A stretch of 64,000 nucleotides of DNA, taken from positions 8,804,001-8,868,000 of the forward strand of contig CM069174.1 of the NCBI GenBank assembly GCA_035221665.1. Direction: 5' to 3'. The translations under genes and the position numbers were made by a program. Shown here in pieces: positions 914 to 64,000 of this stretch. The notes under the pieces are model-generated. The model did no database searches. It had not been told where the DNA came from and worked only from the letters and a program-made list of their open reading frames with translations. The number at the start of each line of letters is the position of its first letter. The first letter of the stretch is position 1. This DNA is from Okamejei kenojei (Eukaryota).

Positions 914-1005
914 CTAATGACGGGTCTCGACCTGAAAAGTCACCCATTCATTCTCTCCAGAGATGCTGCCTGTCACGCTGAGTTACTGCAGTATTTTGTA
1001 TCTAT
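914..1005 (+). mobile_element. Short Penelope-derived element, degenerate core
   Basis: gggtctcgacctgaaaagtcacccattc...gatgctgcctg...gctgagttact matches the PLE terminal repeat. Confidence 0.65.
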
Positions 1006-1018
1006 CTACTATACTCAC

Positions 1019-3205: not shown

Positions 3206-3887
3206 GGATAGACAGCAGCTTTTGCCTTGATTGTTTCCTCAAGCTTGTTGCCTAGTTTGAGGTGAAATTTGGCTCCAGACCTGCTCCTTGGCTGAAAATC
3301 TGGTTTGACAGAAACTGCAATTCTCTCACTGACTCATTGCAAAAGTCACAACAAATAAATCTTTTAATTAGACCTGTCATCCAAACCTTTGTCGTTAACA
3401 GAGAGCTAGAGAGAAGCACAGAAACACGTACTTGATGCAAAACAAAATAAAAGATGTCTCTTATGGGTTGATTTGCGAGGAAGAAGGGGGGGGGTCTTCA
3501 CAAAAACTTCCATTCCCAACTTAAGCCTAGTCAACTCAACTCGAGTGGCCTCAATATCTGAGCACTGGCAGATAATCCAAAGGTCCCTGTGAGGCATAAG
3601 GCAAGGTCACGTTCAAAGGTGATGGTTGCAGTGGCACTCACTGTCCATGTCGCCACGATGTGACCTCCTAAGCTCTCTAGTGTTCACAAATAAGGTACAT
3701 TGTTCAGAACAGTATGATAGAGCAAAGGAAACCAAGATGTCAGGGTGCTTGCAAAGTGCCTGAAGGGCATTGTAAGTTATTGTGGTAGGTCTTTGCCAAG
3801 CTGCTGATAGGTTCTAGAGCACTAACTACACCTAGATGGTGGGGGGATTTCTCCAACTCCACGCGCCCTCATGTCCAAAGATCATAC

Positions 3888-4074
3888 CTGTCAGGTGTTT
3901 AAAACCAAGCTGCTTCAGCCCATGAACTCCATCTTTCCTGTAGTTGAGGATCAACGACAGTGCATACTTGCCATCGTAGAGTGTCGTACCACGGATAATT
4001 CGCAGGTTTTCCAGAGGAAGGTATTCAAATTGATTCAGAGCCACAAGCAGGTAACCAGTGACCTCCCGGATTGA
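3888..4074 (-). CDS. ERBB3: ErbB receptor exon 3 (L1 domain)
   Basis: 187-nt exon between ctcag| and |gtatga encoding [62 protein letters not shown]. Phases match exons 2 and 4. Confidence 0.93.
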
Positions 4075-4329
4075 CTGAGGGGTAAAGAAGCCAAGATTAG
4101 ATCTGCAAGAGGATGTACTGCACAATGCAATAGGCCATTTGGTTACAAGTTTAGTTACACTATCAGGAACTCAAGATGCAATGCTAGCTTTATACCAACA
4201 AATCACAGGGGACAGAGCAACCAGGATGGAAAACAAACATGGTCTCATACTAGCCTGGATTGTGGTGCTCAGCGTATGGAAGGCTACTGGAAAAATCAGG
4301 GAAGGTTTTAATTTCTTATTACTCCCCTG

Positions 4330-10130: not shown

Positions 10131-10203
10131 TCAGTGAGGGCATTCCTGAATCAGTCTTCGATTGATGCCAGCTGGAGGTACGCAAAAGTCGATCATAAAT
10201 CAT

Positions 10204-10306
10204 AGATAGACACACAAAGCTGGAGTAACTCAGCGGGACGGGCAGCATCTCTGGAGAGAACGAATGGGTGACGTTTCGGGTCGAGACCCTTCCTCAGACT
10301 GATGGA
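10204..10306 (-). mobile_element. Short Penelope-derived element with intact hammerhead core
   Basis: Reverse complement reads CTGAGGAAGGGTCTCGACCCGAAACGTCACCC (core 10270-10297). It is flanked by a cataaatcat direct repeat. Confidence 0.75.
10270..10297 (-). ncRNA. Minimal type I hammerhead ribozyme motif, sense to the ErbB pre-mRNA
   Basis: CUGAGGA-A-[GGGU CUCG ACCC]-GAAAC-GUC. Confidence 0.55.
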
Positions 10307-12100: not shown

Positions 12101-13102
12101 AACTACATCTGCTAGTGGGGAAGGCGACTAAACTTCCTTTACACACTATTACAATTTCTCTCTTTGCACACATCTATAAAAATATTAAGTTTTGCAATAG
12201 AAATACACCACTTGAGAGCACCGCCAGCGGATGCTCTTCCCGGGATGAGAAAAACTTTAAAGCAATCCTGCTGTCATCAGGTTGCTATGGAGATTAATGG
12301 AAGCAGTTAAACTCTTAGAAGGTGCTGCAATGTTCTTCAATAAGACCTATCTTAACCACTTGGCACTATTTCACTCTGCTCACACTGCTCTGTTGTATCC
12401 ACCCTTGCATCCTGCTCCACTACTGCCACCGACTCCTTCACCTCGCCCCTTGTCTCACAGACCACTGCGACCACCCACAATGGCAGGAAAACTGGTTTTA
12501 GGCCCTCCAAAAGAAAAGATCTCTCCATATTGTCTGAAATCAGCTGCAGGTGGGAAAATACATCAAAATTTGCCTCCACATGCAAAGCAGCATGTGGCCA
12601 GCGCATATTTTAGGAGATGCTGTTTCTAAACTAATAAACAACAACATCTTGCATTTATGTGGCACCTTTAATGAACCATAGTAACTCAAGGAGATTCACA
12701 AGAGCATTATTGATAGCATTTTGACACCAGGAGTTTCGGGCAGATAGTCAAAATCTTTGCCACTGAGATACATTTTAAGCATCATTTTAAAGAAAGAGGG
12801 AGATGGATTTTATGCACAGAATTCCAGAGGTTAAGGCTTTGGTGTCTGAATATATGGCCCACCAATGGTGGAGGGACAAGCAAAAGGCCAGAACTAAAGA
12901 GCTGACAGAAATCTCGTAACATTGTAGGGCTTCGAAAAGGTTATTGGAAAAGGGCAAGCAATGAGAGCAATGATAAAGAACTTAAAATGGAGGTATTGTA
13001 GAGTGAGATGTTGCAAGTTAAGACTGTGACAGCAGGATCTTTGAAAGAGCACAAACCGAGTTGAAGTACCAAGTGAGCTACCATTTTTCTCTTTGTCCTT
13101 AC

Positions 13103-13254
13103 CTTGAGGAAGGTGAGGTTTCGATTGGCAAAAATGTTAGTGATCTCCAAGTTGCCCATCACTATCTCACAGTCGGTGTACATCTTCAACAGCTGCTGGT
13201 ACTGCTGCTCTTGGCCAGAGAGTGAACTCAGCTTGTTTTCCGTGCCTGCACACA
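13103..13254 (-). CDS. ERBB3: ErbB receptor exon 2 (start of L1 domain)
   Basis: 152-nt exon between ccag| and |gtaagg encoding (V)[50 protein letters not shown], which contains the Erb[12 protein letters not shown] motif. Confidence 0.93.
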
Positions 13255-14272
13255 CTGGACAAAACATAAACAAATTTCTTTAGCAAAGAGGAGTTTCAGC
13301 TCGCTCATCAGTTATTAAGCTGCTCAGTATGGCCATTTCGTTTTAAAATAGAGTCCCCCATTGCTTACTTTTCCTCCTCTCTCGCCCATCTTAATGCTGC
13401 CTAAAGGCACCAGATGTTCTGAACGGGCTATACAAAACTGTTCACTGTGAATGGTATAAAATTAACAGCAAAAAATACAAAAATAAAAACATTCCAAAAG
13501 CCACCATGGAAAAATTGTTTTATTCATTTTTTTGCACCGATAAAACGCCATGCCATCATTCACTCTGCTTTATAAGAGCACCAAAAATGTATTTTAAAAT
13601 ACGCCCATGGAATATCACACAATCTTACTTGGTTATGGGATGCACTGGTGACCTGCTAAAAGATGCTAAATTAAAAAATAATAATTTATCTTGGAACACG
13701 TATTTGAGGTTCCAATGACCAATGTATTGGAACCAAAAACTAATACATCCCTTGACTGAAGTTTTCCCAATATGTAATTTTGACCAACAACAATGAAAAC
13801 CAACAATAGTCCCCAAACCGAAGGAAAATTAAAATCAAAATATTCAAGCTTGGCCACACTGTCCCAGACGTGATTACCTGGAATGCGTTGTAGATAGCAA
13901 AAGGCAAGTCTACTTTCCTCTTACCACCCTCTGCCATCACTCAACATGACCAATAGGATTCATTACAATCAGGGTAGTTCTGTGGCTGTTTTACTGAGTG
14001 CTAGTTAGAATTCATTAGGAACACTGTGTTCTGTTCTGGGAGTTTCATCTTTAAAAGCATACACAGGTATTGGAATAAGTCCACCGCTGATTCACCAGGG
14101 ATTTAGGAACAATCGGCTCAAGTGTGTTCTGCCATTCAGTGAAAACGCAGGCAATCCCTCCCCTTCCTTCAATCTCTTTGGGTAACAAAAACCCAATGAC
14201 TACAGATTTCACTTTAACTGGACAACCGTCAATTGCTGTTTGGGTTAGAGAATTCTCCAACTTCTGTCCTCT

Positions 14273-14550
14273 CCACCCCGGAGAGCAGCGAGAGAGGATG
14301 TTGCAGAATTCTCGTCTGAGAGAGGAGGAGAGCTTCTTCAAAGTAGACACACCTTAAGGAGATTTCGTAGTGGAGATTCCTCCTGCTCTCCGACTCTACG
14401 CATTAATTGTAATTTATCTCTCTACATCATCGCCTATATCTCTCGTTTCCCTTATCACTAACTAGTCTGAAGAAGGGTCTCGACCCGAAACGTCACCCAT
14501 TCCTTCTCTACAGAGATGCTGCCTGTCCTGCTTTTTATGTCTATCTTCAG
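14273..14550. mobile_element. Penelope pseudo-LTR fragment: inverted putative 5' ORF start plus terminal repeat with hammerhead core
   Basis: The minus-strand segment STLKKLSSSLRREF is homologous to 55900-55990. An intact plus-strand core lies at 14467-14494. Confidence 0.65.
14467..14494 (+). ncRNA. Minimal type I hammerhead ribozyme motif
   Basis: CUGAAGA-A-[GGGU CUCG ACCC]-GAAAC-GUC. Confidence 0.55.
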
Positions 14551-16165
14551 AAGAAATAGTACCACGCTACAGTCTGCTTGAAAATACTGTAAACATCAAT
14601 CAAAATGCCCCAAGTTGTGACTTGCTGGAAAACCGGGATGTAGGGTCATCCTAAGGTGAGAGATGTAGTGGACCAGATAGGTTTTCTCGGGTTTTGAACC
14701 CACAATGTTCTAAATCAGAGATAAGCATGCACAACCCACCGAGCCATGGCTGAATCCCATCTCTCACCACAATGCTGCCTAACCTGTTGAGTATTTCCAG
14801 CATTATTTTTAAATATCAAATTTTCGACTGTCTTCTGAATCTCTCATTTCCTGCGTGTTTTTTCTCCTCTCTCTGCTGCTTTCCCTCCTCCATTTATTCA
14901 CACACCTCTATAAAGATTAGCTGTGATTAACAAGCATTCATTACCCTTCCCTTGGACAGCATCAGCGACATTTGTGTCACCCACACAGCCTTAATCCCCA
15001 CTCAATCACACATCCCCACTGTCCTCTCCTACCTGCCCCTCTTTGGAACTTTTATAACACAGTTATTTTCTCACTTTTCCAGTTCTGATAAAGGGTCATC
15101 ACTCTGAAATGTCAACTCTGTTTCTCACTCTACATCTGCAGCCTGACTGCTGAGCATTTCCAGAATTCTGTTTTTATGTTGGCTGAAACCCATGCCAATC
15201 AAGATAAAGACTGAAGAAAATTGGCCAACATGCACACATGTCCCAATAGTGGTTACTGAAAAACAGAAATATGAGATAGCAGGCCCAACCCACCCCACCC
15301 TCCGGACACCAAGCCATGCTAGTCCCTTGTCCAACTTCTACAGCCGTGTCCAGCAGTATGGTGGGTTTGGGATAGTTTTCTTAGATGGATGACAGCCAGT
15401 GGTTTCCAAAGCACCTCATCTGCTTTGAAACATTTATCATAGGGGTGGAGGAAAAGTAGGAAATACTTCAATTAAAAGGCTGTCAGGGAGCCACTGAACC
15501 ACTGCACAAATCTACCTGAAAAATCAGCAACTAGAATGAACCTGCCTCTTGGCACGAAGCACCTCTTATTCCTATAAAGAAACAATCAAACTATGTGTTG
15601 GGCTATGAATAGTGCCTCCATACATACATGCAAAAGACCAAATACTGACAGCCCGAGTGCCTTGGCTTTTTTTGCAAATCCCCTGAAGAGAATTAGGGGC
15701 AATTAAATATCGGAGTAACTCCCAGAGCAGACAGGATGCAGCATGGAATCCTTTTGATCAACATGTTTCAGAAACCATTAAAACTTTTGAGCTGAATCTG
15801 AATATTGGAAGTGTGCAGGAATTACTCTGATTTCTGAAAGCTGTTCAAAGCAAAATTGTCATGCCAAATAGCTGCTCCGAGAGAAGGGATTTGTGTCAAT
15901 TATGGGGCACGGGTGCAGAGGAAAAGTCAAAATTATGAAGGGTCAAGACAGAGTGGAGAAAATTAAAAGTTGCCATTTGGCAGAAGGGTTGAGTATCAGT
16001 TGGATATCATTACTTGAAAGGGCAGTTGAAGCAGATTACCTTCCAAAATGAAACTGGTTAGATACTTAAGGGAGAACAGAATGTTACGAGGGAAAGAGTT
16101 GGAGAATGAAACTGACTTGCCGCCATGCAGTGCAGAGTAATTGGGCAAAATAGCTTCTTCCTGCG

Positions 16166-16848
16166 CTATCCCTCCTTAACTCCCTGGTCAATTTGTCCCT
16201 TCCTACCCAAACTACCCCCTCCCCTGGTACTTTCCCCTGCAACCGCAGAAAATGCTACACCTGTCACTTTACCTCCCCCCTCGACTCCATCCAAGGACCC
16301 AATCAGTCTTGCCAGGTGAGGCAGAGATTCACCTGCACCTCCTCCAACCTCATCTACTGCATCCGTTGTTCCAGGTGTCAACCTATCTACATCGGTGAGA
16401 CCAAGAGCTGGTTCGGCGATCGCTTCGCCCAACACCTCCGCTCAGTTCGTACTAACCAACCTGATCTCCCAGTTGCTCAGCACTTCAATTCCCCGTCCCA
16501 TTCCCAATCTGACCTTCCTGTCCTGGGCATCCTCCATTGCCAAAGTGAGGCCCACTGCTAATTGGAGGAACAGCACCTCATATTTCGCTTGGGTAGTTTA
16601 CACCCCAGCAGTATGAACATTGACCTCTAATTTTAGATAGTCCTTGCTTTCTCCCTCCTTCCCCCCCCCCTCCCCTCCCCTTTCCCAGCTCTCCCACAAA
16701 GCCTACTGTCTCTGCCTATTCCTTTCTTTTTCCTGCCCCCCCCCCCCGACATCAGTCTGAAGAAGGGTCTCGACCCGAAATGTCGCCTATTCCTTCTCCC
16801 CATAGATGCTGCCTCACCCGCTGAGTTTCTCCAGCATTTTTTGTCTTC
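16166..16848 (+). mobile_element. Penelope-like element 3' fragment: GIY-YIG endonuclease and terminal repeat with hammerhead motif
   Basis: ORF 16193-16561 contains PCNRRKCYTC...FTCTSSNLIYCIRCSRCQPIYIGET...RFAQHLRS...VAQHFN, the PLE Zn-finger and GIY-YIG signature. A stop codon interrupts it before LEEQHLIFRLG. The 3' end reads CTGAAGAAGGGTCTCGACCCGAAATGTC. Confidence 0.9.
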
Positions 16849-17129
16849 CTGTGCAATGTATTTTGAGGTAGGAGGAACGAGTATGTGCTGAGTGTACAAA
16901 ATTCTTTGCTTAGGACTGTGAGCCCAGAACTAGAGGCATAAATGAAGTCTATCTCCACTAATACCTGGAATTGTATCAGTGATTGTTGGAAGTTCAATGT
17001 CCAGATAATACACATGAGGAAGGATTGATAAAAATTCAGTGCAATTGTTTTCTTTATTCAGACACAGGATGTAGGCGTAGCTAGGCCAGCATTTATTGCC
17101 CATCCTTAATTGCACAGAGAGCTTTGGAA

Positions 17130-25490: not shown

Positions 25491-25559
25491 AAAAAATCTA
25501 TCTCCACCATCTCAAAGAACACTTGACGGCCAAGGGTTCATCAAATGACAAAGACAGTT

Positions 25560-25785
25560 GACACAAAATGCTGGAGTAACTCAGCGGGACAGGCAGGAAG
25601 TTAGTTGTTTCTCTAAATACTGCGGAATACTGCAGAGGGAGTCAAAACCAATTGTAGTTTCAGTTGAAACAGTGCCCGGCTCTCAGTCTGAAGATGTTTC
25701 TTGACCCGAAACATCACCTATTCCTTCTCCCCAGAGATGCTGCCTGACCCGCTGAGTTACTCCAGCATTTTTTGTCTATCTTCAA
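25560..25785. mobile_element. Palindromic Penelope-derived element
   Basis: Inverted arms gacacaaaatgctggagtaactcagcggg ... cccgctgagttactccagcattttttgtc. Confidence 0.7.
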
Positions 25786-26299
25786 TAATTAGACCTTGCT
25801 GTGTAGATCTAACTCAGAAGGCATTTGATAATGTCAGTAATTCTTGACTTATTTTTATGTTCATAAATTCATAAATGTATGTTCCCTTTTATTATGGAAT
25901 AAACTTCCTATATTAACATGTCATACTGTAACAACATCTTCATCACAATTTGTTAAAAATCACAACTCTTTCAGTAGCAGTAGGGTGGGGAGGAGTGGCT
26001 ACAATTACCCCTTGACGCTTACATAGGCAGTTTCTGCATTGATTAATCTCGGCTATGATTCAGTGGTGGTTGGCAGACAGGATTGTCCATTCAAATCTCA
26101 CTGCAAAAATCTGGCTTTACAGTCCACAATAGTGCTCAGGAAGTGTTGCATTGTTGGGGATGCCGTCTTTCAGATGGCATCCTATGCTACCTCAACTCCT
26201 TGCCTATTCTCTCAAGTGGATGCAAAAGATTCTGTGGTGCTGCTTCTAAGAAGAGCAAGAGAGTTCTCCCCAGTGTCCTGTTTAACAACTATCCTCAAG

Positions 26300-26520
26300 T
26301 TAAAAACAAACTGCTGGAGTAACTCAGCATGTCAAGCGGCATCTGTGGAGGGAATTGATATGCGATGTTTCAGGTCAGGACCATTTCTTAGTATGAAGAA
26401 GGGTCCCGACCTGAGTTGTTGCTGATCCATTCCCTCCACATATGCTGCCTGACCCACAGGGTTCCTCCAGCTCTTTGTGTTTTGCTCAAGACTCTTACAT
26501 GTGCAGCTCCTTTTGTTTCT
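26300..26520. mobile_element. Palindromic Penelope-derived element (older subfamily)
   Basis: gctggagtaactcagc...gaagaagggtcccgacc...gggttcctccagc. Confidence 0.65.
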
Positions 26521-29448
26521 ACTGTCTTTAAGTTAACATCATTGGAACAGATTATCTTTTCATTTGTGGGAGATCTCTACCTTTCATTGGGATAGCAGAT
26601 AGGTGCACTGCTCTCAGATCTGAATGCCCTAAAATTATCAGTGTGAGCAAGAGCAGCCAGCCAGTCAAATAATACTACCAAACCTATTATTTTTATCCTC
26701 GTTTTCCAATCTCTCTATAATCTCACTCCTTCCTGTTTTTGTACCCCCTTCTAGCTTTAAAACCCCCAAATCTCCAACTCTGGTGTCATGACCTTCTCCA
26801 AAGCTATTTACTCCACCACTGGTGATCGTGCCTTCAGCCGGCCGGGCCCGAGTTCTGTAATTCCCTCCCCCAACCTTTCCACTTCTTTCCCCTCTTTAAA
26901 ACATTCCAAGCTGACCAAGCTTTTGTTCACTTATCGCAATATTCCGCATGAGATTCAATGTCGAATTATGTTTGATAATCAATTATAGGCTGCAACCTGG
27001 GGTGTGTTTTCTACAGGAGGTACAGAAATATAAGCTATGTTTGAAGCACCTAAGATCTTTCACCTAATAGTATTACCCAGGCACGGCACTTCTATACCAT
27101 ATTGATACTGCAGGTACCAATCTGAAACTTATGTCTAAAGAACAGTCTCGACTCAAAATGTCACCCATTCCTTCTCTCCAGAGATGTTGCCGGTCCCGCT
27201 GAGTTACTCCAGCACTTTGTATCTATTTATTGTAGGTGACACAAGTATGCCAGCATGCCAAGCATAGAACTATCACACCGTTTCCAGCTTCTACTCTGCT
27301 GCTAGATAGCACTGATACGACAAAGTCCTCACCCAGGCGGAAAAAGATTCCCATGCCTTGTTTAGCATTAAAGTGCTCAAACAGAGCAAGTTGGCTTCAC
27401 ATCTGCTTCGGTAAGGGAAAAGCCTCCTATCCAAGCAACAGCACAATACAGTTGGCCTATTCTGGAGCAGAGCAGGACCCACTTATACACCTCAACCAAA
27501 GTACACATTCCTGTACTCCACAGGCAAACAAACCACAGTGAAAGACGGCAGCACACTGGCACAGGCTTGACGTGCGAGGTCTCGCCCTAGGCACCCGGAA
27601 ACATGGATAAATAGCCACAGGGATTCCGAATTCTCTGCGCCGATGGGAAAGTGCATCTCCTTGCTCCTCCCCTCATGTAACTACTGATGGTTAAGAGACT
27701 CCAATACTTCTATGTGGCCATCCTCCAAGGGAGGGGATTGGATGGTGTGTGTTGGCAGGCACAGCAGCAAGCCTGGTATACCTCTAATGCCACACTGGCC
27801 ACAATCCTGACCTGGCTACACTCGGACCAACCCACTTTTCCAATGCTGACAAGGAGATGCTTAAACCGTGGTTTAACAATGGAGTCTTAGTGACACAGCA
27901 CGTGGTTGAGGAGGAGGTGGGGCACAGAGGAGCAAGTCACAGTCATGCAGAGACATAGCACGGAAACAGGCCTTTCAGCCCACTGAACCTGTGCTGGCCA
28001 TCAAGCATCAATTTTTACACCAAACTAATTTTAGTCTCCCCACATTCCCATCAACTATTCTCCACCCTTTGATTCTCTAACTCACCTACACACTGGAGGA
28101 ATTTTCAGAGGTGAATTAACCAAACAACCTGCTGTCTTTGGGACGTGGGTGGAAAGCGAAACACTCGGATGAAACAAGTGGTCACAGGAAAACTCGTGGT
28201 CACAACAAATGTCCATCACCAGTTTTGAGCTGTGTGGTTCATTGTCTTTCCCTTCCCGTCTCCACCCCACCTACTTTGCAACATTTTCCCCCTTCATCAG
28301 AGGGTTCCAAGGGTTAAACTCCACAATCCATTGCAGCTGGATGGGGCCCGTTTTAATCCAAGTCTTTTGACTCTTTTGCTCTGCCTTTTCAGCAGTACTC
28401 GGCCTTCAAAAGGTCAGATTCCACAGGCCCCTCAAACTGCCATAGCTAATGGCAGTATAATCAGGGTCTTTATTCAGAAACAATGGTCTTCATACAGGGA
28501 GAAACCAGAGGTAGCCCTTTGTGAATTGGCACATCGGACAAACCCGGCTTTGTCAGGCTTTGAGGGCGAATACTTTATCAGCCTCCAACTTATCTACTCT
28601 GCTTCTGAGGAGAGGAGCCATAATCTCTGACCACTTGGCAAAGTTGGACAGAGTCACCCGCAGGCATTTTCTGGATTCAACAATTAAACAATTCACAGTG
28701 TAGTGTGCAAGCTACTTAACACAATTGTCCTGGCACACAGCAGCTGTTAACGCTATTCTGTGCCTTCCCCTGGCTCCACGTTCAGATCTTAGCCACATCT
28801 ATATCAATTGACTGGAAATGTTTAATTTTCCTGTTACACAAATATTCCCCTAGTTCTGGTTCGTAGATGCATCAAATAAGCAACTGTGCAAGACATGAAG
28901 GTAAACATGGAATATTTGTTAGTTTCATCTCCTACTCCTCAACGTCTACAATTTCCTCCAAGAATCCAGCCTGACCATTGTGCTGATGTGATGATGGCTA
29001 CATTCATTAACCAAGCTGAAACGGACCCTCTGTTCTGAGCCACATCATGACAACCAATTGTTCAGCAGTGAACAGTGTGCTGAAGTCTCCTGATCCAAAA
29101 CATCAGTAAGTGGAACTGAAGTCCAAACAAGCAGGAGTGCGCAACAATCTGGGCAACAGCACCCACCCTCCCCATCAGGCAACTCCTGTGTCACCTGCAC
29201 AGTCAGTGAGTCCCACTTTGACCTGATCTGATACCTCTGAACCCTGGAATTGGGCAGTCCAAGAAGACAAAGAACTAAGCTTGCAGTCAGACGGTGCAGT
29301 ACAGATCAATGAAGGCCTCACATGTTGCCCACCTTCTATACCAAATATTTGCCCAACAATGTTACTTACTAACCCGCACAATTCTGGGATGTTGAAGGAA
29401 ACTGGGGTACCCAAGCGAAACCTACACAAGTCACAGAGAGAACGAAAA

Positions 29449-29665
29449 TAGACACAAAGTGCTGGAGTAACTCAGCGGGTCAGACAGCATCTCTGGAGAA
29501 CATGGATACGTGTCTTTTCAGGTTGGGATTCGGGTTTGTTTCGGATCAGGTCCCAATCCGAAACACCACCTATCCATGTTCTCCAGGAATGTTGCCTAAC
29601 CCACTGAGTTACTCCTGCACTTTGTGTCTTTTTCTTTGTAAACCAGCATCTGCAGTTACTTGTTT
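29449..29665. mobile_element. Palindromic Penelope-derived element inserted into a V-SINE
   Basis: Inverted arms of about 70 bp. V-SINE sequence continues on both sides. Confidence 0.7.
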
Positions 29666-31850: not shown

Positions 31851-33377
31851 TTTTTTTCTGTTTTACTGTGCACAGAGCTTCCAACAAATGATACTCACTG
31901 CCATTCTTCAAATTGCTCAGAAATATTTATGCCCCTCAGAGCATTCATTGGTCTAACTCTACACATCTGGACAATTAATTCCATCCTAAATCTGCTGTTT
32001 CATTTCAGGACTTGATTTGCTAGATTGAACCCACACTTAAGGCACACGGTGTGTTGCAGAGAGCAGAGACAAAAATCCTTTGATCTCTATTGAGATGCTG
32101 TCTAATTGATCTAATTGAAGCAGCCCAGAGAAATGGGCAGCGATATGTTGAATTTATGGCTGTAAACTCATAGCATAAACAGAGTATAATTTATTGAATA
32201 ACGCAGGATATATGGCATGGTCCATTTGGCCCAACCAGTCTATGGTGGTGTTCATGCTCCACTTGAGCATCTTTCTTTATCTAAATCTCTCAACTTTCCC
32301 TTATTTCCTTCCCCCTCAAATGGTTGTTCAGTCTCCCTTTCAATGCATATGTACCTCAACCACTGTGACCGAGTTCCACCTTCTAACTACTCTTAGGATA
32401 AGGTGAATGTCCTATTGTGTTTCATTGTACACGAGACCCATGAGTGTCATTCATGGGAACAACATGGGAAGTTGAAAGCTTACATCAGTACAACAGGCGT
32501 GCTCAGATGTAGGAGTTCCCACTTCACTAGAGCAGTGTTGGAGGAAGCGCTTATTTCATTGAGATGCTCTGATTGTGCTATACCTTACCTGGTAGTGTCC
32601 CCAAAGCTCGAAGGACAGCTCACCCAATTACTTTGTACAAGTTGGACACAGAGTACTGGAGTAATTTAGCAGATCAAATAGCTTCTATGGAGAACTTGGA
32701 TTTTGGGTCGGGACACTTGCAGAGATGCTGCTTGACCGGCCGACTTTGTGTCCTTTTATCAAAGCCACCATTTGCAGCTCCTTGTTCCTACCTTCAATAC
32801 TTTGTACGTGTCTTTCCCTCAATGTCCAAGTGACTTTCTGGGTTTACTGACCTGGCAAATGATCTTGTGGAAGAGGATGGGAGGGAAAGAATTAGCCTCT
32901 TGACTGCTGAGCCACAACGCATTGGTAACAAAATGGAAGGTTCGTTGTCAGTGCTGGGAAGACCTACTCCATAACGAAACACTGAGCAGGGGTGGAGATG
33001 TGTTGAAGTTGAAACAAATGGGCTGTTGGTGTTATGCTAATTGAGGCACAGTCATGACCCCATGCTGGCCTTTATTCTCCCTGACAGATCACACTGGGAG
33101 TTCTTCCCCCAGCCATGCACAGAATTCTCAATTGTCTTTTTGTCTTTTTAGAAAAAAATCAGTCAGTGCAATCTGGATAAAAGGCAATTGGTCATACATG
33201 GTTGGCACTGTGTGACTCAATGGGCTTCATCATGTAGCCTATTGGAATCTGCAGTTCCGGTGCACACTCCCGGGAACAAAGAATGCCTCTTGGATACGAG
33301 GATGAAAGACTTGTTCTTTTGCCACACCGACTGCCACTTTAGTACGTCCTTGTAACTTACAAGTCTGAAGTCTGTAT

Positions 33378-33515
33378 GCCTATCTCCTTCGCTCCTTAGA
33401 TGCTGCTGCACCCGCTGAGTTTCTCCAGCTTTTTGTGTACCCTCTGAAGTCTGTATCATCAGTCTGAAGAAGGGTCAAAACGTCACCCGACCACATATTC
33501 CAGAGATGCAGCCTG
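33378..33515 (+). mobile_element. Two short Penelope-derived elements, the first with a 14-bp TSD
   Basis: tctgaagtctgtat occurs at 33364-33377 and 33443-33456. Confidence 0.7.
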
Positions 33516-34831
33516 AAAGCTCACAATTATCACTTTCCATCCTTCTCTCCTGATTCAAGAACATTGACAACACAAACTTGCCATTTAGCCCTTATGATCA
33601 GTCCCGGTTCTCTGCCCCGCTCTCCTTGACCAGTCCCATTCCTCTGCACCTCTATCCTTCTTCACCACTCCCCCCCCCCCCCCCCCCCCACCCCCTCTTT
33701 AACCATAGACTCCTCCTGTGGAAGGGGATACTGTTCAACTATAAGCTCTCCGGTGTCTCAATCAAGTGAGAACTGGACAGTAAAGGGACAAGAGACTCTG
33801 AGTCTGGAGTGTATCACAACCGTTCCTCTCCTCGCCTGCTGCGAGTATGTGCGTAAGAATTTTCCAATGGTGAAGGGTGGTGGCGTTTGTTTCCCGGGCC
33901 GGTGAAAAGGTGGGTTTGCCCTTCCACCAACTCCCGAGAGAAGCGAGGAAACTGACTCAACACCGACCCGGACTGGAACCCGAGAAGAGACAATATCAGG
34001 CAATACCAGACAATACCAATCATCCGCAAAGCGTTACACCACTCAGAATGAGAGCCACACTCGTTCATCTGGATTATTCATACAGTCTGCGTACTGTAGA
34101 TTATAAACACTGATGCGACATGCAGTTTGCAAAACTGGTAGACACCATTTCTTCACATGTAAGGGTGCAGAAATTTTAACTTCAGGGTCGAAGGGTGAGT
34201 CACGTTCAGTACAAAACACCATTGTGATTTCACGGCAACAGACGTGCCGCAAGAACGATCTGCTTTCAGTCACTCCGGTGTCATGAGGCCTTCCCAGACA
34301 ATAAACTCAGTGTAACGGTCGGGGAGATATCCACACCACAGTGTATTGTGGGCTCTTGGCTAATACCTATCACAGATGCCCGGCATCTTAACGGGAAAGC
34401 AGTCTGAAGAAAAGCGTCCGCTCAGACAGACTGATACAGCTAGAAAACGCATTGGTGACGAAACATTGAAGCATAAACTGCATTGTATCCTGCCCAGTTC
34501 ATCTGTCCACACCATCTCAGTGAGCCAACAAAGCAGGAGAGCCGGCTCAGAAACCAGTTATTTTCCCACTCGACATTTCCCATCACTTCAAAAGTGAGTA
34601 TGTAATCGGAGAAGGAAACAAAATTGCACATGCTGGAAATATAAAATTAAAAACAATGAACTCTAGAAATTCTCAGCGTGGGTGAAGGGAGGAATAAGAT
34701 CCAGACTTCTGAGCCAAACACAAACATTCTCGCTGCATGCACCGTCTCCTCTCATTCTTCCATATCGTCTGGAGAATACAGTCCCAGTTCACTCAATCTC
34801 TCCTCATGTGGCAAACCCACCATTCCTGGAT

Positions 34832-35040
34832 AGGTACAAAGTGCTGGAGTGACTCAGCGGATCAGGCAGCATCTCTGGAGAAAAAAGAAAGGTGATGTTT
34901 TGGGTCGGGACCCTTCTTCAGTCTCACCCGACTCAAAACGTCACCTATCCATGTTCTCCAGAGACATGCCTAACCCGCTGAGTAACTCCAGTATTTTGTG
35001 TCTGCCTTTGGTATAAACCAGCACCTGCAGATCCTTGTTT
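34832..35040. mobile_element. Palindromic Penelope-derived element inside a CR1 fragment
   Basis: Inverted arms. The flank ccaccattcctgga is repeated on both sides. Confidence 0.7.
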
Positions 35041-35670: not shown

Positions 35671-35704
35671 GGATGCTGAATAGAACTCACTATCGGCCAA
35701 GGAA

Positions 35705-36055
35705 AGACACAAAATGCTGGAGTAACTCAGCGGGTCAGGCAACATCCCTGGAGAACATGGATAGGTGACGTTTCACAGAGTGCTGGAGTAACTCAGCGGG
35801 TCAGGCAACATCCCTGGAGAACATGGATAGGTGACGTTTCACAGAGTGCTGGAGTAACTCAGCGGGTCAGGCAGCATCTGTGGAGAACATGGATAGGTGA
35901 TGTTTTGGGTCAGGACACTTCTTTGGTCTAAAGAAGGTTTCTGACCAAAAACGTCGCTTATCCATGTTCTCCAGGGATGCTGCCGGACACGTTGAGTTAC
36001 TCCAGCACTCTGTCTTTCCTTTGTAAACCAGTATCTGCGGTTCCTTGTTTCTACA
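35705..36055. mobile_element. Penelope-derived element with 3 tandem 66-bp arm copies and an inverted arm
   Basis: Units start at 35715, 35781 and 35847. The inverted arm lies at about 35940-36010. Confidence 0.8.
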
Positions 36056-45344: not shown

Positions 45345-45440
45345 TAAGTCTGAAGAATGGTCCCGACCCGAAACGTCACTCATCCCTTTTCTCCAGAGAT
45401 GCTGCCTGGCCCACTGAGTTACTCCAGCACTCTTTGTTTC
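45345..45440 (+). mobile_element. Short Penelope-derived element
   Basis: ctgaagaatggtcccgacccgaaacgtc at 45350-45377, followed by the gatgctgcc/gagttactccagc tail. Confidence 0.7.
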
Positions 45441-45464
45441 TCTCCACTTTTGTTTTAGTTTCAT

Positions 45465-49967: not shown

Positions 49968-50098
49968 TGTTTAAGAAGGAACTGCAGATGCTGGAAAATC
50001 AAAGGTAGACAAAAATGCTGGAGAAACTCAGCGGGTGAGGCAGCATCTATGGAGCGAAGGGAATAGGCGACGTTGCCTATTCTCCAGCATTTTTGTCC
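49968..50098 (-). mobile_element. Short Penelope-derived element inserted into a CR1 3' end
   Basis: Flanked by agctaaatctaa and agataaatctaa. Confidence 0.7.
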
Positions 50099-50710: not shown

Positions 50711-50818
50711 AAGAAGGAACTACTTCTGAAGAAGGGTCTCGACCCGAAACGTTGCCCATTTCCTACGCTCCATAGATGCTGCCTCACCCTCTGAGTTTCT
50801 CCAGCATTTTTGTCTACC
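50711..50818 (+). mobile_element. Short Penelope-derived element with hammerhead core and 14-bp TSD
   Basis: Core at 50726-50753 (GUU site). Flanks are ttaaacaaatgtag and ttaaacaaatgcag. Confidence 0.75.
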
Positions 50819-51993
50819 TTAAACAAATGCAGTGCTGGTTACAAATACAGGACACGAGGGGCCACACGAGCATTGACACACACATTTTATAATGAAAGTA
50901 TCAATGTCTGCGGAACGGGAGCACTCGAGCCCAGAGATAGCAGATGAAGTTTACGGCAACAAGTAAGAGCAGAGGCAAGCGAATGACTCCCATGCACTTA
51001 TTCCTGGCAGCGAGGATGGAAGGGACACGGGGAATGGATTTAGTTTGCAATGCCGAAAAGAAGCCACGGCTACTGAAAGAAAAATATATTACCAGGCAGG
51101 AAAATTCCAAGTGGAAACTTTTACTTTATTTCCAGAGACAGAGCTCGCAGTGTAACTGGGACAGCGGCTGTTGATACATGCGGCAGAAAGGAACAGGGCC
51201 GCTGAGAAATGGTTAAAACCACAAATCTCTGCAATCTGTAACAAGCAAATCAGAATCTACTGATCCATTGTACAAGGGCCTGTTCGCCTTTTTGGCAGCA
51301 GCATGTAAATCAGTAAAGCCTCCAGCGATCAATGCAGATTAAAAAAATAATGGGAATGATTGACATTCTTGGGCGGGGGGCAAAGGGGATGACAGAGTTG
51401 AAAGACACAAGAAATGAATAACTGATCTTTAAACATGAGTATTCCAATAGGCTTTAGTGCTGCAAGATTTGCATTTATATAGCGTCTGATCACGCAAGGT
51501 TAATGACTCGTAAGTGCCCCAAACACAGAGGAGGCGATTTGCAAACACCAGCCTCTCTCATGCAATGAAGAGAATGTCCAAACAACCCTACAGCTGCTTT
51601 GACAACTTGTAAATTAAACTCTGGAGCTGGGTAACTCCAGCTCCTGGCGCGCAGGATTCCAGACAGCCGGAAAGTAATTGTGCTGAAATTCACTTGGAGG
51701 ACCAGAGTGTAGTTTTTGGAAGCTCCTCGGCCCTCTCTCTATTCATTCAGCGAGTCTCCGCCTTCTGCGGCGGATTGAACAAACCTGACTTCCCTTTCCC
51801 CAGTGAGACCACAGTCTGGTGAAGGTCAGGGGCCGAGTCACTGGCATAAAGTAGAACATTACTGGTGGCATGCGAACGTGACTCTGGAAAATACACCCGA
51901 CCAGGAGAATCGTGGCATGCGAAACTACCGAGGGATTGCGGGCAAATAGTCACAGAGGAACGAGGGGGTAATTTCAGTCAGAATAAATCTCCT

Positions 51994-52137
51994 GGGTAGA
52001 CAAAAGTGCTGGAGAAACTCAGCGGGTGAGGCAGCATCTATGGAGCGAAGGAAATAGGCAACGTTTCGGGACCCGCTGAGATTCTCCAGCACTTTTGTCT
52101 ACCTTCGATTTTGCAGCATCTGCAGTTCCTTCTTAAA
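51994..52137. mobile_element. Palindromic Penelope-derived element with 15-bp TSD
   Basis: cagaataaatctcct occurs at 51979-51993 and 52138-52152. Confidence 0.8.
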
Positions 52138-53460: not shown

Positions 53461-53759
53461 GTATTGCAAATTGTATGAAATACGTGCCAATCAATAATAT
53501 ACTTTGAAAAGTTTTCGTTTTTCCCAAAATCTAAAATAGAACTAAATCATTTATATAAATGGGCTATTTTTTAAACGCTGTCATTTAAAATATTCCTGCT
53601 AACCTTTCGTTGTTCCCATTTTGTCCAAAATGTGTTGTTTCAAACCTGATTACTTAATCTTATAAAACGAGGAACCTGTTATGCCTTGTCCACCCACCCC
53701 CTCTCTTCCGTCTTTCTCTTCCTCACACCCCCCCCCCCCCTCTCTATGTCGCTACAATT

Positions 53760-53870
53760 AGTTTGAACAAGAGTCTCGATCCGAAACGTCACCTATCCAT
53801 GTTCTCCAGAGATGCTGCCTGACCCCCCCCCCCCCCGCTGACCCAGCACATTTTAGCACATTGTGTCTTG
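53760..53870 (+). mobile_element. Short Penelope-derived element
   Basis: gagtctcgatccgaaacgtcacctatccatgttctccagagatgctgcc. Confidence 0.6.
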
Positions 53871-55805: not shown

Positions 55806-56135
55806 TTTTAAAGAAGGAACTGCAGATGCTGGAGAATCGAGGGTACACAAAAAGCTGGAGAAACTCAGCGGGTGCAGCAGCATCTAAGGAGCGAAGGAGG
55901 TTAGAGAGGAGGTTGTGAAACTGTCTCCGTAGGGAGGAGGAGAACTTCTTCAAAGTAGGCATACCTTGAGGAGATATCGCAGTGGAGTAGACAAAGTTTT
56001 AAAGAAGGAACTGCAGATGCTGGAGAATCGAGGGTACACAAAAAGCTGGAGAAACTCAGCGGGTGCCACAAAAAGCTGGAGAAAACTCAGCGGTGCAACA
56101 AAAAGCTGAGAAACTCAGCGGGTGCCACAAAAATA
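55806..56135 (-). mobile_element. Tandem Penelope pseudo-LTR array with ~29-bp internal tandem repeats
   Basis: Two copies of ttttaaagaaggaactgcagatgctggagaatcgagggtacac enclose a segment encoding MPTLKKFSSSLRRQF. Three extra caaaaagctggagaaactcagcgggtgc units follow. Confidence 0.75.
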
Positions 56136-56449: not shown

Positions 56450-56808
56450 TAACGAATGCCATCTACCATCTTGTCGAAATGTTTCTTAAATGTTGTGATA
56501 GTACCCATCTCAACTACCGCATCCGACAGCTATTTCCACACATCCAACACCATTTGTGTAAAAAAAGTTCTCAATTCCCATATTCTGGGTAAAAGACTGC
56601 ATTTACCCTACCTATTCCTCTAATGATCTTGTACACTATAAGATTGCCCCTCATCCTCCTTGCCTGCTCAACTTCTCTATAGCTCAGACCATCGGGACCT
56701 GGCAACATCCTCGTAAATCTTTTCTGCACCTTTTGCAGCTTAACATCTTTCCAATAACAGGATGACCAAAACTGAACACAATACTCCAACCGTGGCCTTG
56801 TAAAACTG
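56450..56808 (-). mobile_element. CR1 LINE 3' fragment
   Basis: RPRLEYCVQFWS...VQKRFTRMLPG in ORF 56571-56936. Confidence 0.8.
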
Positions 56809-56811
56809 TAG

Positions 56812-57325
56812 GAGGCACAGTGGTGTAGCAGAAGAGTTGCTGCAGCGCCAGAGACCTGGGTTCGATCCTGTATACGGGTGCTGTCTGTACGGAGTTTGTA
56901 CTTCTCCCCGTGACCTACATGGGTTTTCTCCCACACTCGAAAGATGTACAGATTTCGCTAATCCAACACGAATCCCATTTTATTCCTCCCACTTTACTAA
57001 TTCTGTACCATTCACAAGGTAACTTACAGTGGCCAATTAACCTACCAACAAACCACGTCTTCGGGATGTGGGATGAGACAGACTGTCACAGGGAGAATAA
57101 ACAAACGCCCACCAATACACTAGTTCTGTCCTACACACCAGGGACAATTTATAGAAGCCAATTAACACACAAACCTGCATGTCTTTGTAATATGGGAGGA
57201 GACTGGAGCACCCCTCGAAACACACGTGGTCACAGGGAGAACGTACAAACTCTGTACAGACAGCACCAATAGTCAGGATCAAACCAGGGTCTCTGGCACT
57301 ATAAGACAGCAACTCTGTGCCACCC
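56812..57325. mobile_element. Cluster of V-SINE copies in both orientations; another lies at 56165-56320
   Basis: Plus-strand copy at 56812-56950 with A/B boxes. Minus-strand copies at 57000-57325. Confidence 0.7.
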
Positions 57326-61007: not shown

Positions 61008-61330
61008 TCAGTCTGAAGAAGGGTCTCGACCCGAAACGTCACTTATTCCTTTTCTCCAGTGATGCTGTCTGACCAGCTGAGTTATTCCAGAGTACACAAA
61101 AGGCTGGAGAAACTCAGCGGGTGCAGCAGCATCTAAGGAAGAAGGGTCTCGACCCGAAACGTCGCTTATCTCCTTTGCTCCTTAGATGCTAGTGCACCCG
61201 CTGAGTTTCTCCAGCCTTTTGTGTACCCTCGATTTTCCAGCATCTGCAGTTCCTTCTTTAACACTGAGTTACTCCAGATTTTTGCATCTATCTTTGGTTT
61301 AAACCAACAACTGCAGTGTCCTTCCTACAC
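61008..61330. mobile_element. Nested Penelope-derived elements in RPS26 intron 1
   Basis: A young palindromic copy at 61092-61263 sits inside an older copy. The 15-bp TSD is ctgagttattccaga / ctgagttactccaga. Confidence 0.75.
61013..61040 (+). ncRNA. Minimal type I hammerhead ribozyme motif (RPS26 intron 1, antisense)
   Basis: agu-CUGAAGA-A-[GGGU CUCG ACCC]-GAAAC-GUC-acu, with a possible 3-bp helix I. Confidence 0.55.
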
Positions 61331-61686: not shown

Positions 61687-61808
61687 TTTTAAAGAAGGAA
61701 CTGCAGATGCTGGAGAATCGAGGGTACACAAAAAGCTGGAGAAACTCAGCGGGTGCAGTAGCATCTAAGGAGCGAAGGAGATAGGCGACGTTTCGGGTCG
61801 AGACCCTT
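61687..61808 (-). mobile_element. Short Penelope-derived element (young subfamily)
   Basis: Near-identical to 55806-55897. It is truncated before the CUGA motif. Confidence 0.7.
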
Positions 61809-62089
61809 GTGATGTTGCCTTGCCTGCTGAGTATTTCTTGCTTCTGTTTTTAGAGATTAAAAGCTCTGAAGTTAAAAACTTTGGATTCCGTATATTCACA
61901 TTTTCAGCTGCCTCTAATGATTTTATTCCGTATTAACGTTAAAATCAGGCAGATTGTGGAACAGGGCTCCAAATATACAAAGGCCTTTTTGTATTTGGAA
62001 GCGGTTCCTCGCTTCGAACTACAAGAAGTATGTCTCCAATAGTGAGTAAATTCGAGATATCATATCGAAATGTCATCAGATTGTAACAT

Positions 62090-62780
62090 CGGCCCTCTGG
62101 TCGTTTCTGCTGGCTGGCTTGCAGTGCAATTGACAGACGGTGTCCCCATCGACCCCACCAGCCTCCCGGTGCCCGCGCAAGGCGGCCCAGCCCCGCGGGG
62201 AGGCTGGCACCTGGGCCGGGCCCGGCCTTGTAGGCCTCGGCCCCGACCCCGACTCGCAAACGGCTTCAGTGCTTGACCACCCGCTTCCCAGGGGGCGATG
62301 GGGAGAGGGAAGGGTGGTCGAGACGGGAGGGCGAGGGCGAGACGGGGAGCGGGGCGGCGGCGGCGGCGGCGGCGGGAGGAAGCGGCGAGACGGGCCGACA
62401 CTCACCATCTTCAACACGAGCCACAAAGAGGACCGGAAGCAGGCGCTCGCGCCTTTTATACCTCCGCGCTCAGGCCCCGCAACTGGCGGAAACAGCCCCC
62501 AATGCCGCATCCAGCACCGGCATCACGGCAGCGGCTGCCCCGCCGCACTGACCCACCGTGGCGGCTGAACAGCGCTCCCGCCACTCGGCCCTTTCGGTCT
62601 GTAAACACCGGGGACTACTTTATGCGGCGGACGGCGACGCCGCGGCGGGCCAGTGAAGCGGCCGCTACCCAGCGAGCAGCGCGCGCCAGCAGTGGTCACG
62701 TGACGCGGGCTGTCACTCAGCGGGAGCTTTGGGTCACGTTGCGTCGAACGCCCCGCCTCCGTGTTGAAGGCTCTTGAAGA
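62090..62780 (-). promoter_or_regulatory. RPS26 CpG-island promoter: TATAAAA (62454-62460), TOP/TCT start (~62430), ETS CCGGAAG (62433-62439), palindromic E-box GTCACGTGAC (62695-62704)
   Basis: Very GC/CpG-rich region with a TATA box about 30 nt upstream of the pyrimidine tract CTCTTT. Confidence 0.85.
62406..62408 (-). CDS. RPS26: 40S ribosomal protein S26 (eS26) exon 1, ATG only
   Basis: TOP-type 5'UTR CCTCTTTGTGGCTCGTGTTGAAG followed by ATG|gtgagt. Confidence 0.9.
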
Positions 62781-63617
62781 TGGAGCCCATCTTTGGTTTG
62801 AGCAAAAATAGAATAAAGTGCACCGTAATCGTAGAGGCACACAGGTTGAGGAACTGTGTCAAGAGCCGTACCTACTAATAGTACATTAACATACAGGATG
62901 GTCAAGAAGCCAGAGATGGATAAGAAATAGAACTGCAAGAGATTAGAGAAATAGGGAGGGAAACAATGTCATTTCTGTTGCCCTGATTTCCAAGGTGTTC
63001 TTTTCCCAAGGATGACAATGTTAACACTGAGATATTGCTTACAAGGGGGCTAACGTGGTGCTGGGGATGATGGGAGGTGATTCTGAGCACAAGTAAGGAC
63101 ACAGGGAGCTGGATGCGTTTAGGTTTGTGCTCTTGGTAAGGTGGTGGCAATGCGGCCAGAGTTCAAATCAGATGCCAAGTTTGCAGACAGTCTGGTTCAG
63201 TTTGAGACAGTGGTCAGGAACAGGAGCAGAATTAAATGGAGAGGGAATGGAATTTAAAATATAAACAAAACTATTGGAAACACTCAGATCCAGGCTGAAT
63301 TCATGGAAAGGGAAATTGAGTTAGCATCTCTGGTCAATGATCCTACGTTTGAACTGGAAAAGTGAAAAAACAAATTAGTTTTAAGTTGCAGAAAGGGATA
63401 GATTGAACAAAACACATATCTCGGATAGGGCAAGGCAGGATTACAATGTATTCTACTGTTTACAGAACTGTCTGGACGATAGTTGAATGAGGGTAGTTTG
63501 AGAGAAAGAGAATAAAAAGGGACATAGAGAAGCTGCGAAACGCAGGTCAGAGTCATTGCTGAGGCCTTAAACCAAAAGTATTCTGAAAATGCCCAGCAGA
63601 TCAAGCAGTGTCTGAGG

Positions 63618-64000
63618 ATGAGCAGGGAGGTTCTACTTCAGTTGTACAGGGTCTTGATGAGACCACACCTGGAGTATTGCGTGCAGTTTTGGTCTCCAAA
63701 TCTGAGGAAGGACATTATTGCCATAGAGGGAGTGCAGAGAAGGTTCACCAGACTGATTCCTGGGATGTCAGGACTGTCTTATGAAGAAAGACTGGATAGA
63801 CTCGGTTTATACTCTCTGGAATTTAGGAGATTAAGAGGGGATCTTATAGAAACTTACAAAATTCTTAAGGGGTTGGACAGGCTAGATGCAGGAAGATTGT
63901 TCCCGATGTTGGGGAAGTCCAGGACAAGGGGTCACAGCTTAAGGATAAGGGGGGAATCCTTTTAAGACCGAGATGAGAAAGACTTTTTTCACATAGAGAG
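63618..64000 (+). mobile_element. Young CR1 (HER1-like) LINE, 3' part of ORF2
   Basis: ORF 63618-63965 reads LYRVLMRPHLEYCVQFWSP...VQRRFTRLIPG...RLRGDLIETYKI...RTRGHSL. Confidence 0.92.

Follow-up and report, generated by a model that had tools for sequence, protein, structure and literature searches.

At position 16757 of the window, the 64,000-nt stretch of Okamejei kenojei contig CM069174.1 analysed here, a sequence resembling a minimal hammerhead ribozyme stands at the end of a retrotransposon remnant and recurs in short repeats on both sides. Are these repeats a mobile family of their own that spreads a self-cleaving RNA, or pieces of a larger element, and was the ribozyme cut in the RNA from which they were copied?

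A minimal hammerhead motif closes a truncated Penelope-like element

The Penelope-like element (PLE) found here is 5'-truncated and carries, near its 3' terminus, a minimal type I hammerhead motif made up of nucleotides 16757-16784. The insertion, ~670 nt within a 14-bp target duplication, lies in an intron of an ERBB4-like gene. PLE ends elsewhere match ~16169-16850 in blastn searches at 75-90% identity over ~680 nt including the unit (25 longest alignments listed), and the Pfam GIY-YIG model PF01541 matches the fragment with E 0.0018, below its curated cut-off. The parts of the locus are as follows.

3874..4095 (-): exon of the ERBB4-like gene, whose introns hold the repeats (phmmer best matches erbB-4, E 1e-28)
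16156..16169 (+): left target-site duplication, 14 bp, 12/14 identical to the right one (read from sequence)
16170..16843 (+): 5'-truncated PLE with Zn-finger-like linker, GIY-YIG end, 3' UTR and terminal unit (blastn, Pfam)
16214..16561 (+): remnant of a reading frame that encodes a CX4CXXC linker and GIY-YIG/CCHH motifs (translation, Pfam, protein search)
16752..16758 (+): initiator-like TCAGTCT on the 5' border of the hammerhead motif, preferred copy start and putative RNA start (5'-end pile-up)
16757..16784 (+): minimal type I hammerhead motif (boxes and pairing read from sequence)
16785..16843 (+): conserved block that follows the motif and extends to the first 3'-end site, the putative start of reverse transcription (+90 to +95)
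16844..16857 (+): right target-site duplication (read from sequence)

A second ERBB4-like exon, which we take to be such by likeness, lies at ~13100-13255 on the minus strand. A GC-rich stretch near 62-63 kb (62060-62860) may hold the promoter of the gene.

Within the motif, the CUGANGA box (16757-63) is followed by an extra A (16764), helix II (16765-68 with 16773-76), GAA (16777-79) and helix III (16780-83), with a predicted cut after C16784. Positions are counted below from C3 of the CUGA box as 0, so that the predicted cut falls between +27 and +28. The published anatomy of minimal type I hammerheads, recognized in the original prediction, is all present: CUGANGA and GAAA...UH boxes, an extra base after A9, G10.1-C11.1 and a loopless palindromic helix III (15.2-16.2). 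The ACGU palindrome proposed for helix III stands as a part of this anatomy and is lost at 16757 itself, where a CpG change has left AUGU.

The repeat is abundant in the window and throughout the genome

A profile built from natural copies found 44 pieces in the window. They cover all 22 places at which more than 20 short repeats had been listed before, with small shifts (41490 to ~41525, 42900 to ~42987 and 49968 to ~49997). Seven copies keep all catalytic boxes, five of them with a 4-bp helix II as well (10297-, 14467+, 16757+, 50726+ and 61013+); several of the listed places hold 3' halves and lack the core that all had been thought to carry. The pieces divide into 26 on the plus and 18 on the minus strand (counted by eye), with no convincing strand bias relative to the ERBB4-like gene among the 44. 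Representative copies and clusters are:

914..1013 (+): decayed solo unit
10200..10304 (-): unit with intact motif, in sense orientation in an ERBB4-like intron
14464..14532 (+): unit with perfect motif and ~80 nt of PLE 3' UTR upstream
25557..25790 (both strands): head-to-head inverted pair
26297..26486 (both strands): head-to-head inverted pair, older subfamily
27133..27230 (+): decayed solo unit
29444..29630 (both strands): head-to-head inverted pair
33377..33476 (+): young-subfamily piece without core, then a partial core
34829..35007 (both strands): head-to-head inverted pair
35702..36007 (strand not assigned): inverted piece and three short tandem pieces
45347..45446 (+): solo unit, boxes intact, helix II with 3/4 pairs
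49999..50097 (both strands): inverted pair without most of the core
50721..50826 (+): solo unit, boxes intact, GUU triplet
51995..52109 (both strands): inverted pair without the 5' half of the core
53757..53825 (+): decayed unit
55842..56124 (-): young-subfamily 3' pieces without core
61008..61296 (strand not assigned): cluster of the intact unit at 61013 and a young-subfamily inverted/direct pair
61723..61808 (-): young-subfamily unit without CUGA box

The very high copy number suspected from the window is borne out genome-wide. The exact 28-mer of window positions 14467-14494 has 48,215 matches in the 2.76-Gb genome and its reversed control none. A profile search of a 1-Mb sample (100 evenly spaced 10-kb genome pieces) found 375 pieces in 287 clusters, again with none in the reversed control, which extrapolates to ~0.8 million loci. 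All catalytic boxes are kept in 76 sampled copies and helix II also in 38, corresponding by extrapolation to ~100,000 intact motifs genome-wide. The estimate of about one copy per 3 kb in introns is close in magnitude, at ~1 locus per 3.5 kb, but this density is that of the whole genome and is not specific to the introns of this gene.

By thresholds that we set, 140 of the 375 sampled pieces are solo units starting near C3 and 117 start inside the unit; an inverted copy lies upstream in 69, PLE 3' UTR in 43 and a tandem copy in 6. Pairs of intact motifs on the same strand within 1 kb occur once in the 1 Mb. Head-to-head clusters outnumber tail-to-tail ones by 48 to 1 among the 287, an arrangement that accessible text on PLEs describes (PMC8557442, PMC3846280).

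The unit is the terminus of a Penelope-like retrotransposon

The original prediction had derived the repeat from a PLE terminus, and the genome agrees. A unit of ~95-130 nt terminates GIY-YIG fragments and is found at either end of ~4-kb elements; over its whole length, to the last base, it is colinear with the PLE end. A protein search of the genome with the GIY-YIG fragment of the window yielded 113,031 first-look candidates. Among 29 other loci taken from this search, 26 have the motif downstream of the GIY-YIG match, 25 of them at a distance of 173-323 nt. Of the 16 fetched loci that contain element body, four are full length, and in these both pseudo-LTRs (pLTRs) carry the motif, at a spacing of 3956-4001 nt; every fetched full-length copy lacks an unbroken frame. 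At locus L041, a frame of 974 codons contains a reverse transcriptase (PF00078, E 3.8e-6) followed by GIY-YIG (E 0.0029), both below curated cut-offs; its ESM Atlas neighbours, at 0.98, carry RT/GIY-YIG families. The element ORF starts ~160 nt after the CUGA box. Hit density is 3 per Mb for the 5' body and 23 per Mb for the 3' end of the ORF.

Translations contain the marks of endonuclease-bearing (EN+) PLEs, namely the CCHH motif, of which two cysteines lie between GIY and YIG, and a DKG motif. The CX4CXXC linker of the window fragment and of L041 conforms to the CX2-5CXXC of Neptune, which is common to Nematis. Judged by marks of Neptune or Nematis in the definitions of EN+ PLEs in the available text of Craig et al. 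(2021; PMC8557442), the parent appears to be a Neptune-type PLE. Like the elements of that clade, it has a single RT with C-terminal GIY-YIG, the linker and CCHH, and its copies show partial tandems (pLTRs), inverted 5' pieces and an optional 30-40-bp tail. It differs in that short terminal pieces far outnumber long ones.

Copies start at the edge of the motif and not at the cleavage site

To locate the ends of young copies, we used the first 100 of 43,351 genome matches to a young-subfamily 32-nt anchor downstream of the cut site, which was the sole criterion of selection. All 100 lie within the initial 5.4 Mb of a single contig, and inverted pairs contribute both of their members. The 5' ends of 56 fall at -7 to +7 and those of 13 at +8 to +37, 12 of the latter being inversion junctions; 19 lie between -8 and -700, and 12 copies are longer. 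No copy starts at +28 and one starts within +26 to +30. The same edge is seen in non-inverted copies, 34 of 62 of which start in -7 to +7 versus one in +8 to +37. Per nucleotide, truncation at this hotspot is 16 times as frequent as in the adjoining 50 nt on the upstream side (p 1e-16); when non-inverted copies alone are counted, the factor is 20. Three of the 56 hotspot starts adjoin upstream element sequence and one adjoins the UTR of another subfamily; these four are not clean truncations.

The 3' ends cluster at two sites ~34 nt apart, with 64 copies ending at +88 to +98 and 36 at +119 to +138. In predicted folds, the downstream block at +47 to +54 can pair with +75 to +80 or with the tail at +107 to +114 (L297, L179), and these alternative pairings are a candidate structure for two sites at which reverse transcription may start.

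Flanks match over at least 7 bp in 18 of 30 plain solo units, compared with 3% in shuffles. Variants occur in similar proportions in short (38/13/5) and long copies (22/6/1), and none is private to short copies among the 100. These target duplications and common variants indicate that solo units are separate insertions made from the same masters as long copies, and 5' ends at the CUGA box, with none at the cleavage site, argue that the RNA template was not cut at the ribozyme.

YCAGT is present in ~8-9 of every 10 among 43 copies with element sequence upstream, and bases -5 to +1 fit an initiator consensus. PLE promoters are placed inside the pLTR in accessible text on these elements (PMC2377424; PMC3846280). 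An extra G that a cap might leave shows no excess before solo units starting at AGT: the preceding base, by eye, is G in 20, T in 21 and A in 19 of 60 rows, after 40 inverted, duplicated, UTR-bearing or passenger rows of the 100 had been dropped. In contigs of four sequencing runs on L179, the unit is covered far more deeply than the 5' body.

Unit-body-unit insertions point to probable jumps between RNA ends

Longer copies that begin at the same hotspot were sought among 30 loci that best match one 5'-body query, 14 of which come with just 1.8 kb of downstream sequence. Some ten of the loci start at the hotspot, and nine of these were fetched further. Eight have the order unit, body, 1-9-nt linker, second unit; the ninth has an internal deletion. 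Their bodies end at +565, +570, +571, +580, +627, +1186, +2118 and +2522. The linkers are mostly A-rich and six of eight end in G. A target duplication of 10-15 bp surrounds the whole insertion in six, and the other two have 5' inversions. The starts of the first and second unit are (3,2), (-2,-6), (0,0), (2,2), (-2,-2), (2,1), (-5,-4) and (2,2); they lie within 1 nt of each other in seven of eight copies, a concordance with p 0.0018 by permutation and p 0.0004 against the population of starts. One further jump, with a 173-nt linker, occurs in a copy with an extended 5' end.

Read most simply, these copies record an enzyme that ran to the 5' end of an RNA molecule, jumped to the 3' end of that same molecule and copied it a second time. 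A circle made by the ribozyme would place the junction at +28, where none is seen. For the copies described here, the data argue against a simple circular-RNA model with junctions at the ribozyme cut. None of the nine hotspot-starting copies is full length, whereas a simple model would expect some now and then. Jump copies are a minority of insertions: none of the 100 young copies extends into the element body.

Units carried by other elements

At L273-L286 (e.g. G000:C1:9740097-9743120), a different mobile element, at least 1.7 kb long, harbours a young unit together with the target duplication of that unit; this carrier has a sharp end ~236 nt past the junction motif; the junction has 1,303 exact matches. 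We considered this recurring junction as a secondary non-autonomous master and rejected the idea, as it represents one unit carried inside the other element. A second recurring composite junction (inverted piece and unit), found at least three times, e.g. at L207 and L269, is possibly another passenger or a secondary master. PLE ends on the small contigs C1030, C827, C451 and C600 (L057, L058, L055 and L060) have common flanks, which suggests that a large tandem or segmental repeat carries them. The PLE copy of L041 lies among what we take to be endogenous-retrovirus-like remnants (L041:8348-9553 and flanks, with an env-like frame). Positions 63528-63965 and 56571-56957 of the window are presumably reverse-transcriptase remnants of CR1/L2-type LINEs, by their likeness.

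Conservation and predicted activity of the ribozyme motif

Helix I is short: in the 38 otherwise intact sampled copies it has 2 bp in 27, 3-4 bp in five and fewer than 2 in six. Position 1.1 varies between A and G, both of which pair with U2.1. Across six subfamily groups (189 copies, preselected for at most nine mismatches in the 28-mer), the commonest letter changes in 0 of 11 catalytic and 0 of 8 helix II columns versus 8 of 19 columns just downstream of the core. Within individual copies, catalytic bases show no excess conservation over their flanks: decay is neutral and fastest at CpG, and the most decayed positions are G12, 15.2 and 16.2 (0.69, 0.74 and 0.61). The excess conservation proposed as a mark of the ribozyme is present between subfamilies and absent from single copies.

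Helix II shows no covariation; its stem is invariant between subfamilies, and double changes are mostly non-complementary, with about one quarter complementary and one half A.A at pair 10.2/11.2 (by eye, first 100 of 1,028). Rfam gave no hit at the gathering threshold in the whole window and, for the perfect copy at 14467 with its surroundings, no hammerhead match at E values of up to 10. For the unit from -3 to +95, the predicted hammerhead-compatible fold is 3-8 kcal/mol worse than the best fold in 7 of 7 copies folded; the best fold mostly pairs the core with the downstream pyrimidine run, and the dimer is predicted to prefer another pairing (-21 vs -13 kcal/mol). The recurrent A.A variant at 10.2/11.2 may represent a small subfamily with a broken helix II.

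With ~2 bp in helix I and no covariation in helix II, hammerhead cleavage is a prediction. The short helix I and the alternative predicted folds argue that the motif, unaided by protein, would have little activity if any. Published minimal-hammerhead monomers are reported inactive (PMC4209133), and the ribozyme of PAc, a Poseidon element of Anolis, is described as cleaving only when its protein is added (Frangieh et al. 2024, PMC11167929). That the genome holds ~100,000 intact-looking motifs, some intronic and on the sense strand, suggests that single motifs are largely silent. We infer that selection maintains the motif in masters and that most solo copies are silent. The hammerhead likeness would instead be vestigial if it were kept as promoter or protein-binding DNA or RNA and did not cleave even in masters. 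The ~2-bp helix I, the disfavoured monomer and dimer folds and the missing covariation would all fit this account; we nonetheless consider it rather unlikely, since catalytic positions are fixed across subfamilies while their neighbours change and since silence without protein is equally a property of the PAc ribozyme. It concerns activity alone and is compatible with the explanation of origin that we prefer.

Origin of the solo units

The solo repeats are probably independently inserted pieces of PLE pseudo-LTRs, copied from RNA in which the predicted hammerhead motif was likely uncut. Element RNA would start at about -4 to +2, at the initiator-like CAGT. The RT-endonuclease would nick the target and prime inside the RNA, ~90 or 126 nt from its start; internal priming at two sites, with unprocessed RNA as the main substrate, is described in vitro for anole PAc (PMC11167929). 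The usual outcome would be run-off at the RNA 5' end, leaving a solo unit, and priming from both target strands would give head-to-head pairs. Sometimes the enzyme would jump from the 5' end of an RNA to the 3' end of that molecule, and one more round of copying would then produce unit-body-unit. The ribozyme would be kept in masters, where it probably serves to process full-length tandem transcripts, with the help of protein or as a dimer, and dispersed single copies would be neutral debris, likely almost never cleaving.

Pseudo-LTRs themselves could arise in the same way, a proposal we make tentatively and to which we give somewhat less than even weight. Priming near the 5' end of uncut RNA would be followed by a run to its start and a jump onto the 3' end of that molecule. 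Jumps that fail would leave the hundreds of thousands of solo units as 'strong-stop' products, and jumps on prematurely ended RNA would leave unit-body-unit copies. The ribozyme would trim the 3' end of full-length RNA, creating a ~30-nt redundancy (-4 to +28) and a seamless transfer resembling that of retroviruses.

The original prediction saw a SINE-like, retrozyme-like system. On a reading of this kind, the unit would be an independent element with its own short, self-cleaving, circularising master RNA copied by PLE enzymes. Short pieces do dominate, with 140 of 375 solo and PLE UTR upstream in just 43, and they have a sharp 5' edge and target duplications of their own. Animal retrozymes derive from PLE pLTRs, and one chondrichthyan genome is reported to have them (10.64898/2026.07.22.740005); non-LTR retrozymes are likewise short and non-coding, carry a type I hammerhead and are related to PLE pLTRs (PMC7229834; Li et al. 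2026). As described in PMC7229834, however, retrozymes form tandem arrays bounded by cleavage sites and yield circular RNAs, and their ribozymes are canonical type I. The units here are dispersed single or inverted pieces bounded upstream of a minimal core; the 6-bp helix I and loop-loop contacts of a canonical ribozyme were not found in them, tandem copies are rare in the 1-Mb sample (6 of 375, and the one intact pair within 1 kb per Mb), with occasional arrays possible elsewhere in the genome, and no start among the 100 young copies, and no junction, lies at the cleavage site. Body-containing copies use the same 5' edge, the units are colinear with the PLE end, and short copies have common rather than private variants, against a separate non-autonomous family. 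Nor has the unit a head of its own (tRNA, 7SL or 5S) or a lineage apart from the PLE; it resembles SINEs only in being short, mobilised and numerous. We therefore regard an independent element as distinctly improbable.

The hotspot might also be a point on a long tandem transcript at which reverse transcription or second-strand repair halts or switches, by fold-back at the near-palindrome CAGTCTG, a bound protein or an endonuclease nicking its own pLTR, with unit-body-unit copies as internal deletions made there. Microhomology at CAG or GTC in many inverted junctions, the self-priming by which palindromic junctions of rotifer PLEs are read (PMC3846280) and the missing cap signature before solo units would agree with such a site. 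Yet 34 of the 62 non-inverted copies start at the hotspot too, and the predicted hairpin lies downstream of it, where starts are rare. Base-exact agreement of starts within, but not between, insertions and the non-templated A/G linkers better fit an end specific to each molecule, and a stop site appears improbable to us. If CAG|T were instead a 3' splice site, the edge would be a product or intermediate of splicing. A pyrimidine tract and YCAG precede the unit in UTR-bearing copies, and the Drosophila virilis Penelope intron is reported to end at the 5' end of helix I (PMC4209133), but solo units have no common first exon upstream, the branch-point-like motif lies just 3-5 nt before the AG, and no GT..AG joint into the hotspot occurs among the 15 of 92 joints listed in contigs of four runs. 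Splicing is, in our judgement, a highly improbable source of the edge.

Comparison with known systems

Minimal hammerheads in PLE pLTRs, mostly single, dispersed and probably related to truncated PLEs, were described by Cervera and de la Pena (2014, PMC4209133), and the headline of the original prediction, a ribozyme in PLEs, is not new because this association was already published. The motif here resembles those reported there in its presence in both pLTRs, the extra base after A9, G10.1-C11.1 and the palindromic loopless helix III, and in being mostly single, dispersed and tied to truncated PLEs. It is more numerous (48,215 exact and ~100,000 intact copies, against ~4,000 quoted for coelacanth and ~9,000 for Xenopus) and, unlike the published motifs, varies little between subfamilies. 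Helices II and I have 4 and ~2 bp here and 7-8 and 4-5 bp in Schistosoma; helix I of D. virilis has 2 bp.

Another parallel is PAc (PMC11167929), which also has two 3'-end sites separated by the tail and copies made from RNA not cut at the ribozyme, and whose priming on both strands would fit the head-to-head pairs. PAc belongs to another clade and its ORF starts inside the ribozyme, in contrast to ~160 nt past the CUGA box here; a fixed 5' edge and end-to-end jumps are not described for it in that text. In accessible PLE literature on template jumps, solo pLTRs and tandem formation, we likewise found no description of a fixed 5' edge or of same-molecule jumps, although subscription papers and supplements may differ. 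The open literature on hammerheads in sharks and other elasmobranchs yielded no account of this family, and two of the three supplementary files of PMC4209133 contain no shark or skate names.

Implications

What is new here is the scale of the family and a natural record of the PLE copying reaction, which bears on the question of how pseudo-LTRs form (Schostak et al.). With tens of thousands of young copies whose junctions can be read, pseudo-LTR formation becomes testable both by counting and in vitro, in the system of Frangieh et al. (2024). End-to-end jumps on the same RNA would, if true, help to explain the origin of the repeated ends of PLEs.
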